A stretch of DNA of 20,000 nt from an uncultured virus (IMG/VR IMGVR_UViG_3300013383_000030) (lineage: Duplodnaviria; Heunggongvirae; Uroviricota; Caudoviricetes): IMG/VR virus record IMGVR_UViG_3300013383_000030. One strand, 5' to 3'. The notes under the pieces are model-generated. The model saw only the letters and a program-made list of their open reading frames with translations, searched no databases and was not told where the DNA came from. Made by a program: the position numbers and the translations under genes. Numbering within the stretch: position 1 is the stretch's first letter; every line of letters starts with the position of its first letter. Of the stretch, positions 574 to 19,586 are shown one piece after another.

Positions 574-605
574 GTGAACTCTATGCCATGCTAAAGACAT
601 GGCAT
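574..605 (-). mobile_element. Orphan IS200/IS605-type right-end hairpin (family A)
   Basis: GTGAACTCTATGCCATGCTAAAGACATGGCAT; one mismatch to the reverse complement of the tnpB end at 2269-2300. Confidence 0.75.
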
Positions 606-2259: not shown

Positions 2260-2300
2260 AACAAGAAGATGCCATGTTTTTAGCATGGCATAGAGTTCAC
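2160..2300 (+). mobile_element. tnpB right end / putative omegaRNA scaffold ending ...GATGCCATGTTTTTAGCATGGCATAGAGTTCAC (5' limit approximate)
   Basis: Subterminal hairpin and TTCAC terminus directly after tnpB; the same end recurs elsewhere in the window. Confidence 0.7.
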
Positions 2301-2625: not shown

Positions 2626-3252
2626 TCATGCTTCAATGCCTGTGATGATTTTGTTCATTATTTTCTTCCTGATGATCTTCTCGATTCCAGGACTCACATG
2701 GTATACGTCCTTCAACATGATGCTCCTCACGTAGTTCCTCGTTATTGAGGTGTCTAGGTTGCTCCTGTCGAGTACGTATTCGACATGATGTCTTTCAATC
2801 CACCCCTCGATTTCCGCTTTCGAGACGAGGAGCATTGGGCGGAAGATGTTGAACTTCGGGTTGTGGTAAGGAATCAGCCTTGGGTTTCCGGTGAGGGAGG
2901 TCATGACCCAAGTCTCGATGCAGTCCTTCAGGTGATGAGCCATGAGAATCGGCTCGTCTGAGAACTTCTTCAGAAAAGAATACCTGCAGTTCCTCCAGTA
3001 CTCCTCCTGTGATTCGTTTTTCTTTCTGTTCCTGCCAATCTTCCCGAGATGGAGTTCGATGCTGTTTTTTTCGCAATAGGCTTTGATGAAATCCTCGGCT
3101 TCCTGGCAGCATTCCGTTCCGTGGTTGAAGTGGAGGATGTCGAAGCTGTTCCTGGGGTATCTCCTCAGGAAGTCGACAAGAACCATCGAGTCGCTTCCGC
3201 CCGAACATGCAACGTGGAAATGCTGCTTTGGGATATTTCCAAGAATTTTCAT
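2626..3252 (-). CDS. tilS: tRNA(Ile)-lysidine synthetase, compact 208-aa form
   Basis: PP-loop ACSGGSDS, HFNHG, RNCRY, AHHLKDCIET, RPML, DRSN, RNYVR motifs; SD AAGGAAAAC before ATG at 3252. Confidence 0.92.
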   Translation of the reverse strand: MKILGNIPKQHFHVACSGGSDSMVLVDFLRRYPRNSFDILHFNHGTECCQEAEDFIKAYCEKNSIELHLGKIGRNRKKNESQEEYWRNCRYSFLKKFSDEPILMAHHLKDCIETWVMTSLTGNPRLIPYHNPKFNIFRPMLLVSKAEIEGWIERHHVEYVLDRSNLDTSITRNYVRSIMLKDVYHVSPGIEKIIRKKIMNKIITGIEA

Positions 3253-3271: not shown

Positions 3272-3360
3272 TGGCTTCCCCCGTGGGAGTCGAACCCACA
3301 ATGTCCGTTTCCGGACAAGAGATTAGGAATCTCTCCGAGTGTCCATTGTCGCAGGGGGAA
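3272..3360 (-). tRNA. tRNA with CCT (Arg) anticodon and a class II long variable arm
   Basis: TTCCCCC/GGGGGAA acceptor, AGAGA-TTCCTAA-TCTCT anticodon arm, TGTCC-GGAAAC-GGACA variable arm, GTGGG-TTCGACT-CCCAC T arm, G73 followed by CCA. Confidence 0.88.
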
Positions 3361-3436
3361 TTTGAAAATGTTATCGTAGTCAACCCCATCTATGTGTCTT
3401 CTGTGGGATATAACCATCTGCGTACTTCTTGAAATT

Positions 3437-3491
3437 GTCAGATACCCACAGCTGAAGACCTGACATCTTTCTCGTCAAGTTTTCTGTAAAA
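3437..3491 (-). mobile_element. Chimeric mini IS-end element
   Basis: TTTTACAGAAAACTTGACGAGAAAGATGTCAGGTCTTCAGC matches 13822-13878, but it ends in a different terminus, TGTGGGTATCTGAC. Confidence 0.6.
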
Positions 3492-3493
3492 TG

Positions 3494-3567
3494 TCCTCTC
3501 GGTTGGATTTGCACCAACAACGGATCGGGTATGAGCCGACTAGTCTCACTAATTGACTTACGAGAGG
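3494..3567 (-). tRNA. tRNA-CAT (Ile2 or Met), no encoded CCA
   Basis: CCTCTCG/CGAGAGG acceptor, AGTC/GACT D-stem, GTCGG-CTCATAC-CCGAT anticodon arm, GTTGG-TGCAAAT-CCAAC T arm. Confidence 0.88.
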
Positions 3568-3579
3568 TAGAAATCGAAA

Positions 3580-3682
3580 TGCTCCGTAAAAGACCGGAAT
3601 GAAAGAAAACGGCTGAAACCAGGAGCGTCCGGTTTGGATTGAGAAAGGAGACCAAACCGAGTTTCATTTTTTAACGAAAGAA
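3580..3682 (-). ncRNA. Putative structured small RNA 1 with CU-rich loops
   Basis: CGGTTTGG-TCTCCTTTCTCAAT-CCAAACCG hairpin and GCTCC...GGAGC stem, preceded by TTCTTTCGTTAAAAAA. Confidence 0.45.
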
Positions 3683-3684
3683 GC

Positions 3685-3758
3685 TGGTGGACCGAAGGGT
3701 AGTCGAAACCCTAATCCCTGAATGCAAATCAGGAGTTATGCCGTTTAACTATCAGCCC
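3685..3758 (-). tRNA. tRNA-Ala(TGC)
   Basis: G3:U70 pair (GGGCTGA/TCGGTCC), CCTGA-TTTGCAT-TCAGG anticodon arm, A73 followed by CCA. Confidence 0.93.
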
Positions 3759-3761
3759 AGT

Positions 3762-3849
3762 TATAGTGGGAGTGGAAGTCGAACCAAACGTGTGATTGCT
3801 CACTGGAGGTTATGAGCCTCCTGGACTTGAGTCCATGTCCGATCCTATA
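3762..3849 (-). tRNA. Atypical tRNA-like RNA with CAT anticodon
   Basis: TGGAC-TCAA-GTCCA D arm, GGAGG-CTCATAA-CCTCC anticodon arm, GTGA-GCAA-TCAC variable arm, GGTTCGAC T-loop; interrupted acceptor stem. Confidence 0.6.
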
Positions 3850-3861
3850 CTCTGAAAAAAT

Positions 3862-3982
3862 ACACCTGTCACAAACACCGGAGATGATGGCCGGAGAAAC
3901 CCAACAGGCATTGGAACGAGGGAAAGAAAGGGAAGCCCTCGTTTCCGGATTTCTTTTTTTAACGAAAGAAAATGAAAAGGGG
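3862..3982 (-). ncRNA. Putative structured small RNA 2 with CU-rich loop
   Basis: AACGAGGG-CTTCCCTTTCTTT-CCCTCGTT hairpin and CCTGT...ACAGG stem, preceded by CCTTTTCATTTTCTTTCGTTAAAAAAA. Confidence 0.45.
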
Positions 3983-3984
3983 GT

Positions 3985-4125
3985 GGGATGTGGTTTTCCC
4001 AAAAATATAAAAATAGGAACATCCCGTGCCCCGGTACGTTGGTCTGGATGATTGTCTCTTCGATTTTCCCTTTCCAGACCAACCGCGCACGACCTGAACC
4101 CTGTTTATCCTCGTCGTGCCGAGTC
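3985..4125 (-). ncRNA. Putative multi-stem RNA in the operon leader
   Basis: Perfect stems GTTGGTCTGGA/TCCAGACCAAC (11 bp), GCACGAC/GTCGTGC and GGGATG/CATCCC. Confidence 0.45.
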
Positions 4126-4185
4126 CAAGTGCTTTTTTCAAAACGCTTGTTTTTGTTTTGTTCTTTTTTTCAAGAAATCGTTCGG

Positions 4186-4198
4186 TTGTCAAAGAGCT
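4186..4198 (-). promoter_or_regulatory. boxA-like antitermination site
   Basis: AGCTCTTTGACAA versus consensus TGCTCTTTAACA, about 30 nt after the promoter; similar sites at 4308-4319 and 845-857. Confidence 0.6.
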
Positions 4199-4229
4199 TC
4201 GTCCATTCAAGAACTTCGTTTGTGCCAGT

Positions 4230-4258
4230 ATTATATCATTTTGTTTCGGGTTTGTCAA
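4230..4258 (-). promoter_or_regulatory. sigma70 promoter P2 of the tRNA operon
   Basis: TTGACA-17 bp-TATAAT with extended TG. Confidence 0.88.
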
Positions 4259-4370
4259 GAGGTTTTTCACCTTTTCCTTCCCTTCACAAAGAAGTTTTTG
4301 ACGAACATTTCAAAGAGCGTCGAGGTCGTTTGATTTAGTCGTGTTTTCCTCGTTCCTCACGACGCCGCAT

Positions 4371-4398
4371 ATTATAGCATGTGGCAGGCTGATGTCAA
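4371..4398 (-). promoter_or_regulatory. sigma70 promoter P1 of the tRNA operon
   Basis: TTGACA-16 bp-TATAAT with extended TG. Confidence 0.85.
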
Positions 4399-4584
4399 GA
4401 CCGTTTTCGCTTTCCGTTCAAAAAGATTCGGGACGGCTTTCGACCGTCCCGTCCCCCCCCTATGTATGGAAGCACATGTCAGGCGGTCGTGGAACAATGG
4501 CTTCCGGGAGCATATTTAGGTATGTTCTTTGAATTAGCATTGTTCTCCGGCTTCCCGCTCATGTGTCCACAATTTTCAGTCGTT

Positions 4585-4732
4585 GAAATGCAGCCATCTT
4601 CAGTCGATGCGTAGTTGACGTTTACAATAAAATTAACGAGAAAGATGCCACGTTTTTAGCGTGGCATAGAGTTCACTATTGAAAAAATGTTCTACTGATT
4701 CATGGCAACCGCTGAAGACAGGTTGCATTTTC
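4585..4732. mobile_element. Cluster of three orphan IS-end hairpins (family B at 4585-4619, family A at 4622-4676, inverted B-like at 4703-4732)
   Basis: GAAATGCAGCCATCTTCAGTCGATGCGTAGTTGAC; ...GAAAGATGCCACGTTTTTAGCGTGGCATAGAGTTCAC; GCAACCGCTGAAGACAGGTTGC. Confidence 0.65.
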
Positions 4733-9894: not shown

Positions 9895-9988
9895 TTTTCG
9901 TTTTCCTTTCTTTTTCTTTCGTTTATGCCAATATTATAGCATGTGGGGAATGGAAATCAAGGCGAATTTCATCTTTCGGCATAATCCT

Positions 9989-10116
9989 GTGAACTCTATG
10001 CCATGCTAAAAACATGGCATCTTCTTGTTTCATTGTTTAGACTTATCAATGTGAAAGAATGACGATTCATATACCGGGTTGAAGACCTGGCATCTTTCTC
10101 GTCAAGTTTTCTGTAA
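9989..10116 (-). mobile_element. Two orphan IS ends (family A)
   Basis: 9989-10049 is the reverse complement of 2240-2300 with 2 mismatches; 10078-10116 matches the 13822-13878 element. Confidence 0.8.
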
Positions 10117-11535: not shown

Positions 11536-11615
11536 TTCTTTTGTTTTCCTTTCTTTTTCTTTCGTTTATACCACTATTATAGCATATTTTATTCAACGGT
11601 CAAGGGGGTTTTCAT

Positions 11616-12695: not shown

Positions 12696-12778
12696 TTCGA
12701 TTTTCCTTTCTTTTTCTTTCGTTTATGCCACTATTATAGCACATTTCAAATGATTGTCAAACCGTTTTGAACCAAACC

Positions 12779-13009: not shown

Positions 13010-13214
13010 TTTATATTTCCTTTCTTTTTCTTTCGTTTATGCCACTATTATAACATATTTTGTTCAACAGTCAAGGAGGTTTTCATTCTGTCCGGATTGT
13101 TGTTTTGTTGCAAACATTGAAGATGCCAACGAGAAAACCATTCAAAAATATATTTAGGAATGGGAAAATGGACGATTATGACAATGTCGCTGTGAAGCTG
13201 AACGGCAATCATTT

Positions 13215-13821: not shown

Positions 13822-13878
13822 GTGAACTCTATGCCAGGCTAAAGACCTGGCATCTTTCTCGTCAAGTTTTCTGTAAAA
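13822..13878 (-). mobile_element. Complete 57-bp mini IS-end element (family A)
   Basis: TTTTACAGAAAACTTGACGAGAAAGATGCCAGGTCTTTAGCCTGGCATAGAGTTCAC. Confidence 0.75.
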
Positions 13879-19415: not shown

Positions 19416-19586
19416 TTTGTTCTCCTTTCTTTTTCTTTCGTTTATGTCACTATTATAGCATATTTCCAACAATAGTCCAGCACATTTTCAAAATAATCTG
19501 TCATACCCGAAATTTTTGCCGAAATCCTGTATCATTATAGCATATTTCCATCAACAATCAAATGTGTTTTCGTTCCTCCAAAAATA

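Follow-up and report, generated by a model that had tools for sequence, protein, structure and literature searches.

What are the two stretches of non-tRNA sequence in the tRNA operon of an uncultured member of the Caudoviricetes, and do they act on the early genes of the same phage? Both stretches, here called seg1 and seg2, were noted at positions 3,580 to 3,982 of a 20,000-nt DNA (IMG/VR record IMGVR_UViG_3300013383_000030; Duplodnaviria, Heunggongvirae, Uroviricota) that was analyzed as a whole and is called the window below. A first-pass annotation of the window had proposed that they give rise to small RNAs (sRNAs) antisense to a leader and Shine-Dalgarno (SD) sequence shared by many early genes. 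We found that the two segments are paralogous copies of a structured RNA module of about 115-125 nt, and that this module represents a genuine structured RNA family, conserved and so far undescribed, within the tRNA operon of a phage. Pairing of the modules in trans, as antisense RNAs, with the early leaders is a possibility suggested by the sequence comparison, and we put it forward tentatively.

The window's own contig (L134, 25,954 nt) and a related viral contig of 81.6 kb (G001; stretches L001 and L135) were located through a PP-loop (TilS-like) gene at 2626-3252. This second contig is the sole relative found, with 87-90% protein identity. Its tRNA operon contains five modules: m1 and m2 before tRNA(CAU), m3 between tRNA(CAU) and tRNA-Ala, and m4 and m5 after tRNA-Ala. 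All eight tRNA genes of the window are on the - strand (ARAGORN). Both segments had initially been described as inter-tRNA segments of similar organization; this position holds for seg1, which lies between tRNA-Ala and tRNA-Met, but not for seg2, which is found upstream of the first tRNA of the block. The similarity itself was borne out, as the segments are related, structured and conserved, and the same arrangement is present in the relative. The two window modules and the five modules of G001 can be aligned, and all seven are within the tRNA operon. A covariance model (R1) built from the seven matched only these seven when the window, L134, L135 and L218 were searched (72 kb, filters off), and over the whole 81.6-kb G001 record it returned the five known copies only. 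No family of Rfam 15 corresponds to the modules: in a scan of window positions 3300-4500 at E up to 10, the modules had nothing but weak matches of 12.7-16.7 bits with unrelated families, and the result for L001 1700-2900 was alike.

Each module is composed of a 5' block, UUUCUUUCGUU, whose 3' half is in a helix P1, followed by a helix P2 with a large pyrimidine loop and by a long helix P3. Read on the - strand, both segments start with UUCUUUCGUU and continue with A6 in seg1 and A7 in seg2, just as the first-pass annotation had stated, and they have TTCTTTCGTTAAAAAA(A/T)GAAA and their layout in common. In P1, UUUCGUU pairs with AAUGAAA around a loop of 4 to 16 nt, with 94% of cells paired; the changes observed are a compensatory U-A to C-G in m4 and a U-G in m2, and a mismatch is present in seg2 only. 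The stem of P2 has 5-10 bp and its pyrimidine loop 10-16 nt, with CCUUUCU occurring in four of the seven modules. P3, a long hairpin, is interrupted by an internal loop with GUUUC in its 5' arm and YUUU in its 3' arm, and it is topped by a small apical stem. The order P1-P2-P3 was predicted in all modules except m2, in which the minimum free energy fold differs. The CU-rich hairpin loops that had been noticed earlier are present in both predicted folds, as UCUCCUUUCUCAAU in seg1 (z -2.64) and CUUCCCUUUCUUU in seg2 (z -1.95).

Because the lengths of P2 and P3 vary among subtypes, fixed-column covariation across the seven modules is weak outside P1 (66% of cells paired, with a -1 slide control nearly equal), and structural conservation was judged by pairwise comparison of orthologs instead of fixed columns. 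In the pairs seg1/m5 and seg2/m3 the stems of P2 and P3 diverge yet pair, for example GCUCC/GGAGC versus ACUCC/GGAGU and GCCG/CGGU versus GCAGG/CCUGU, with no change in the loop cores CCUUUCU(C) or in the 5' block. Since the stems vary and the loops remain constant, this is the pattern of an RNA with structural stems and loops that are read by sequence. Two open reading frames (ORFs) that overlap this region were rejected as genes. The one on the - strand (3380-3667, with its AUG in P1) traverses tRNA-Met, and the indels between seg1 and m5 are not multiples of three; the one on the + strand (3988-4338) has no promoter-like site upstream and overlaps promoters of the - strand.

The proposed target of the modules, a leader repeated in front of early genes, is real. 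Its 24-mer was found in five copies with at most one mismatch, all on the - strand, and in none of 200 shuffles. Every copy directly follows TGnTATAAT-N6-CAUA, which places it at the start of a 5' untranslated region of about 30 nt that ends in the SD GAAAGGA. The target is within about 30 nt of the start codon. Extended -10 sigma-70-type promoters (TGnTATAAT) number 22 in the 20-kb window, between 4230 and 19550 on the - strand, and many of them have a TTGAC -35 element. In both phages, short leaders with the conserved start AACGAAAG(AAA) are found behind many sigma-70-type promoters. Several of the promoters form tandem pairs about 80 nt apart, in which the upstream promoter is followed by a conserved 'UUUUCGGCAAAAAUUU'-like stretch and no leader (e.g. 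19542, 17554, 16037, 12013). Apart from the tRNA genes, the - strand of the window contains mostly small ORFs without known families (library scans of 19 proteins), which are located behind these 22 promoters. To judge from these signals, the window resembles an early region such as lytic phages have, and we infer a host with Firmicute-like signals.

The complementarity between modules and leaders is centered on the invariant block. UUUCUUUCGUU is the exact complement of the 11-mer AACGAAAGAAA in the leader core and is conserved in seven of seven modules, m4 carrying a variant. In G001, AACGAAAGAAA occurs five times on one strand, each time in a module and in antisense orientation, and six times on the other, always in promoter leaders; the reversed control occurs on neither strand. 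On the sense strand of the window, AACGAAAG is present eight times (0.58 expected), six of them in leaders, and CTTTCGTT twice (0.22 expected), both at module 5' ends. In L135, CTTTCGTT was found five times (0.18 expected), four times at module starts and once in the P2 loop of m1. About 14 of some 24 early-type G001 leaders, counted by eye, contain ACGAAAG. Three of the individual matches listed in the first-pass annotation are where it had placed them (AACGAAAGAAAA at 3961-3972, AACGAAAGAA at 3673-3682 and GAGAAAGG at 3641-3648), and the fourth, AAAGAAAGG, is at 3923-3931 and not at 3933-3941. The longest match is one of 12 nt for seg2 in the window and one of 14 nt for m5 in G001 (versus the leader at contig position 62401). 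Over 10 nt, the m4 variant of the block, UUUUUUUCGU, matches a variant leader, ACGAAAAAAA.

The locations of AACGAAAGAAA can also be read at the DNA level. The motif could be an operator for a phage protein, situated at +3 to +13 of early promoters and, inverted, in the tRNA operon, with the RNA complementarity being a side effect. It does stand directly past the -10 element of many promoters, and with both DNA strands considered it is confined to these two kinds of place. The copies at module 5' ends, however, share one orientation and one register, with one further copy in the m1 P2 loop, and the motif partly pairs in P1 with the compensatory change in m4, which argues for a constraint at the RNA level. 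As no candidate DNA-binding protein was found among the 19 proteins scanned either, we regard an operator as quite improbable.

The P2 loops provide a second hint, which is weaker than that of the 5' block and not fully independent of it. Most of these loops are complementary to the SD (GAGAAAGG), as had been proposed: the four of seven that carry CCUUUCU(C) can pair with (GA)GAAAGG, an SD located upstream of 14 of 30 candidate - strand starts (crude start finder). The same loops allow a more general explanation, in which the modules mimic the 16S rRNA tail or serve as a sponge for pyrimidine-binding proteins such as S1 or Hfq. The CCUUUCU loops, which we take to resemble the 3' tail of Firmicute 16S rRNA, would then compete for host and phage SDs, and the leader would be no specific target. 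The frequency of the complementary SD among the candidate starts speaks for such a role. Against it, the most conserved element of the modules is the CG-containing 5' block, which is not complementary to the SD, and the motif is missing in three of the seven loops; we consider this explanation improbable.

Whether the match of the block to the leaders exceeds its composition was assessed with permutations. Among 495 composition-identical permutations of the 11-mer, 11 match at least one of 13 window leaders and 4 match at least five, and in G001 the real 11-mer is the sole permutation that matches at least four of 18 leaders. For the 8-mer, with 168 composition-identical permutations, the real sequence ranks top in G001 (10 of 18 leaders) and tied top in the window (6 of 13). 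The chance level for the leader match of the block is roughly 1-2%.

Several results weigh against pairing. The first-pass annotation had itself named pairing no better than that of pyrimidine-rich shuffles as evidence against its proposal, and in terms of predicted energy this is what was found. The duplexfold energy against the 13 leaders was equalled or surpassed by dinucleotide shuffles in 79 of 300 cases for seg1 and in 205 of 300 for seg2. For the co-fold energy difference (ddG), computed with 6 of the 13 leaders, the corresponding numbers were 98 of 150 for seg1 and 129 of 150 for seg2. Dinucleotide shuffles also reached the longest Watson-Crick match, in 150 of 1000 cases for seg1 (11 nt) and in 26 of 1000 for seg2 (12 nt). 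Leaders and modules are both of low complexity, the former purine-rich and the latter pyrimidine-rich, and any pyrimidine-rich RNA pairs with such leaders. In addition, P1 ties up the 3' half of the 5' block, CCUUUCU is absent from three of the seven P2 loops, and AACGAAAG is present at only 6 of the 22 TGnTATAAT promoters of the window. To speak of the whole early regulon is thus to claim too much for the 5' block; more genes would be within reach of the SD-complementary loops. Hints of seed-target covariation are limited to single suggestive cases in the two genomes, namely m4 with its variant leader and the CC of m5 with a GG in the leader. As just two related genomes carry the module, its conservation may reflect shared ancestry, and conservation in two genomes is not independent evidence. 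Finally, the promoters of the operon belong to the same class as those of the targets, and transcription alone gives no temporal switch. What survives is the identity and position of the conserved block, with a complementarity that is specific and statistically modest.

The main rival to pairing takes up these same failures to beat the shuffles in energy and longest match. The modules could be spacers of the tRNA operon that function in cis only, the U-rich block and P1 being a boundary signal for the tRNA trailer or for an endonuclease, the hairpins insulating tRNA folding or protecting ends, and the complementarity being a by-product of composition. The position of the block suits such a role, for it is fixed 2-9 nt past the 3' end of a tRNA or past a preceding hairpin and marks the boundary in the tandem modules m1-m2 and m4-m5. 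The partial, compensated pairing of the block in P1 suits it as well. Similar tails, CUUUCUCGUU and CUUCUUGUUU, are found on two terminator-like hairpins at other places in the window. Left unexplained by a purely cis role are the constant P2 loops on changing stems and the fact that the exact permutation kept is the one that matches the largest number of leaders; we consider such a role rather unlikely.

The modules and the phage tRNAs probably share transcripts that start at two strong promoters of host type. The modules are then probably released, wholly or partly, by the RNase P cut at the next tRNA and by 3' maturation of the previous tRNA; given the location in a tRNA operon, tRNA processing would define at least some of the module ends. 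RNase P is also the enzyme that matures the c4 RNA of phages P1 and P7. The freed RNAs would pair in trans with the short early-gene leaders of the phage itself, the 5' block binding AACGAAAG(AAA) at the very start of the leader and the P2 loop CCUUUCU(C) binding the SD (GA)GAAAGG. As the stable RNAs accumulate, such pairing may lower translation or alter mRNA stability. Either direction of effect is conceivable, through occlusion of the ribosome-binding site (RBS) by the P2 loop and the block, or through protection of the extreme 5' end of the mRNA, an idea that draws on the 5'-end-dependent decay of mRNA in Firmicutes. Because the operon and its targets have promoters of one class, any timing would have to come from accumulation of the stable RNAs and not from a later promoter class. 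The complete scheme, in which a multicopy family of tRNA-operon RNAs is matured by tRNA-processing enzymes downstream of a pistol ribozyme and pairs with the common early leader and SD so as to shut down or re-time the early program, is doubtful.

The operon leader contains further elements (Table 1). Its two promoters at 4230-4398 are the nearest ones upstream of a pistol-ribozyme-like element, of seg2 and of the tRNAs, and they are kept in L001. Against RF02679, for which the gathering score is 34.5, the pistol-like element reaches 21.4 bits (window) and 22.5 bits (L001); it stays below the threshold because the model leaves a long P3 insertion unaligned. Sequence and cmscan alignment show the features of the consensus, namely a P1 hairpin, a 7-bp pseudoknot (GCACGAC / GUCGUGC), an AUAAA linker, a long P3 (UUGGUCUGG...CCAGACCAA) and a G-U at the junction, the site at which pistol ribozymes cut; P2 has 3 bp only. 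Compared with the window, the pseudoknot of L001 shows a compensatory C-G to U-A change, and the P3 helix there is of other sequence and still pairs. The element at 4124-4033 is probably a variant pistol with a long P3 insertion and thus a candidate ribozyme. Between it and seg2, a GC-rich hairpin followed by a U-rich tract is predicted to lead straight into the 5' block, and its fold resembles a processing hairpin or a terminator. The P2 loop of seg2 also matches the P3 loop of the pistol-like element over 9 nt (GAAAGGGAA), a match that is absent from L001 and was dropped.

The presence of a pistol-like candidate in the same transcript raises the question of whether the modules themselves belong to a new class of self-cleaving or otherwise catalytic RNA that cuts the operon transcript at module boundaries. 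They are compact motifs repeated at boundaries, and the internal loop of P3 is conserved. On the other hand, they match no Rfam ribozyme family (E up to 10 in the window and up to 5 in L001), and the seven sequences reveal no conserved core other than the 5' block and the loops. We consider catalysis by the modules very improbable.

Table 1. Positions of the modules, of their neighbors in the tRNA operon and of the repeated elements in the window
Feature	Position	Strand	Basis or remark
Module seg1	3686-3568	-	between tRNA-Ala 3685-3758 and tRNA-Met 3493-3567; R1 103.1 bits; ortholog L001 m5
seg1 5' block CUUCUUUCGUU	3683-3673	-	
seg1 P1	3679-3673 / 3668-3662	-	predicted fold
seg1 P2 stem	3660-3652 / 3637-3629	-	loop UCUCCUUUCUCAAU at 3651-3638
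seg1 P3	3626-3622 / 3585-3581	-	inner stem 3613-3610 / 3596-3593, loop UUUUCUUUCAUUC
Module seg2	about 3974-3850	-	upstream of the first tRNA of the block; R1 88.8 bits; most similar to L001 m3
seg2 5' block UUUUCUUUCGUU	3972-3961	-	P2 loop CUUCCCUUUCUUU at 3935-3923
seg2 P3, long hairpin with apical loop CCAUCAUCU		-	predicted fold
tRNA(CAU) (tRNA-Met)	3493-3567	-	ARAGORN; Rfam tRNA match 3494-3567
tRNA-Ala(UGC), CCA encoded	3685-3758	-	ARAGORN; Rfam tRNA match 3688-3758
tRNA(CAU), 86 nt, long extra arm	3764-3849	-	ARAGORN
GC-rich hairpin (GGGG..GGGAUGU...ACAUCCC..CCCC) and U-rich tract leading into seg2 5' block	3975-4032	-	predicted fold; conserved in L001
Pistol-ribozyme-like element in operon leader	4033-4124 (L001 1922-2012, +)	-	Rfam RF02679
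Pair of sigma-70-type promoters without mismatch (TTGACA and TGnTATAAT, spacer of 16 or 17 nt)	4398-4371, 4258-4230	-	12/12 hexamer matches each
Leader copy AAACGAAAGAAAAAGAAAGGAAAA behind TGCTATAAT promoter	9901-9924	-	
Other leader copies	11544-11567, 12701-12724, 13015-13038, 19420-19443	-	
Hairpin element GAACTCTATGCCAYGCTAAAAACRTGGCAT, copies	576-605 (+), 2269-2298 (-), 4645-4674 (-), 9991-10020 (+), 13824-13853 (+)		

Pattern and model searches found no carriers of the module beyond the window phage and G001. In viral contigs, the strict module pattern returned G001 and nine single matches, with no second copy and no tRNA context, which were read as chance; in genome contigs it returned 38 single matches in unrelated taxa. 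The loose module pattern gave at least 115 matches, again read as chance, with no second copy among the matches listed. The exact leader pattern had no match in the viral contig collection, the combined promoter and leader pattern matched G001 and, by chance, one AT-rich contig, and the pistol-core pattern matched G001 alone. With the tRNA-Ala pattern 11 other loci were obtained, at which R1 was never better than E 0.03. Of 80 metagenome loci that encode a PP-loop protein homolog, only the window's contig (L134) and G001 (L135) showed the module motif, and a tRNA scan of the loci of the PP-loop relatives L136-L143 (44-57% identity) revealed no tRNAs upstream of the gene. No close phage relative of the window was found in GenBank by megablast of the window or by blastn in its 'distant' setting with 3480-4300, and the latter search against 50,697 phage records gave one short, unrelated match only. 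With the PP-loop protein, tblastn returned homologs at no more than 43% identity. A look-up of sequencing runs for positions 3400-4400 listed none.

Within the tRNA operon, the acceptor stem of the long-armed tRNA(CAU) at 3764-3849 pairs poorly, and the Rfam scan at E up to 10 did not list this gene as a tRNA. Its counterpart in the relative (L001 2299-2386, +) has a cloverleaf and an encoded CCA and scores 37.4 bits for the Rfam tRNA family; the arm-bearing tRNAs are 86-88 nt long. The window copy may be degenerate. Beside this gene and the other tRNA(CAU) gene at 3493-3567, the operon includes the PP-loop ATPase gene on the - strand (PF01171, E 8.6e-34), whose homologs in jumbo phages bear the annotation tRNA(Ile)-lysidine synthase TilS. 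The arrangement suggests that the phage supplies both an AUA-decoding tRNA-Ile2 of its own and the enzyme for its modification.

The tRNA gene array is also interrupted, between tRNA-Ser and tRNA-Gly, by a gene of the TnpB / IS605 OrfB type on the opposite strand (1057-2259, +), identified by Pfam OrfB_IS605, a Cas12f1-like TNB domain and a PHROG transposase annotation; the relative shows no such gap at the corresponding place. A 30-nt hairpin element, GAACTCTATGCCAYGCTAAAAACRTGGCAT, has five copies with at most three mismatches in the window and none in shuffles. Its stem carries compensatory changes, and two inverted copies flank the block of tRNA-Ser and TnpB. The copies could form a family of terminators, or they could be ends or target sites of a mobile element.

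Regulation of the early genes by the modules is plausible and attractive on the evidence of the leader match, though we hold it to be somewhat short of probable. Its appeal is partly practical, since the leader repeated behind many promoters gives the modules an explicit and mutable candidate target, which makes their function directly testable. If it is true, phages use the spacers of tRNA operons to regulate their own gene-expression program, and a first function would be assigned to the small RNAs of phage tRNA clusters, a class known since RNAC and RNAD of phage T4 and long unexplained. If the pairing is not real, the modules are a new structured RNA family and, at the same time, illustrate how spurious antisense matches arise from purine-rich leaders.

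Firmicute sRNAs such as RsaE/RoxS, and the hairpins of RNAIII, also expose SD-complementary pyrimidines in their loops. Unlike the modules, these RNAs have their own promoters and terminators and C-rich UCCC motifs, and in the window and L001 the modules had no Rfam match to Firmicute families with C-rich loops. In the literature searched we found no description of tRNA-operon RNAs aimed at the leaders of the phage itself, and a term search of a 2025 review of phage small RNAs did not return the word tRNA (PMC12197685).

In organization, the nearest case is that of RNAC and RNAD of phage T4 (species 1 and 2 RNAs), small non-tRNA RNAs in the phage tRNA region whose roles are given as still unassigned in the cited passages (PMC3014915, PMC9697503). 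Like them, the modules are non-tRNA small RNA genes inside a phage tRNA cluster; unlike them, the modules are multicopy (two and five copies) and have a block complementary to leaders of their own phage. No T4-like match to the modules was obtained by the 'distant' blastn search of 3480-4300 against the phage collection. In the proposed mode of action they resemble the 3'ETS-leuZ of E. coli, a spacer that is excised from a polycistronic tRNA precursor and whose action in trans relies on base pairing (PMC8166272, with reference to Lalaouna et al. 2015). As described in that passage, 3'ETS-leuZ differs in being a host RNA of 53 nt that targets the sRNAs RyhB and RybB with Hfq and not mRNA leaders, and it shows neither homology to the modules nor a repeated module.

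Two further phage systems are comparable with respect to the target. The c4 antisense RNA of P1 and P7 blocks translation of a phage mRNA with complementary sequences, probably exposed in its loops, that bind around the RBS, according to the section cited (PMC12197685). The modules would share with c4 the presentation of complementarity in loops of a phage RNA, directed to the RBS region of phage mRNA; c4 differs in having a single target operon (ant), in belonging to an immunity system and in lying outside a tRNA operon, and the Rfam scans of the window and L001 gave no C4 match to the modules. The endoribonuclease RegB of T4, in the account cited, inactivates many early mRNAs through a short motif common to their translation initiation regions (PMC3014915). 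To the extent of that account, RegB and the proposed modules are alike as phage devices that hit many early mRNAs through a shared motif, and they differ in that RegB is a protein nuclease cutting at GGAG, whereas the agent proposed here is an RNA with a putative effect. If the pairing is confirmed, the modules would be an RNA counterpart of RegB.

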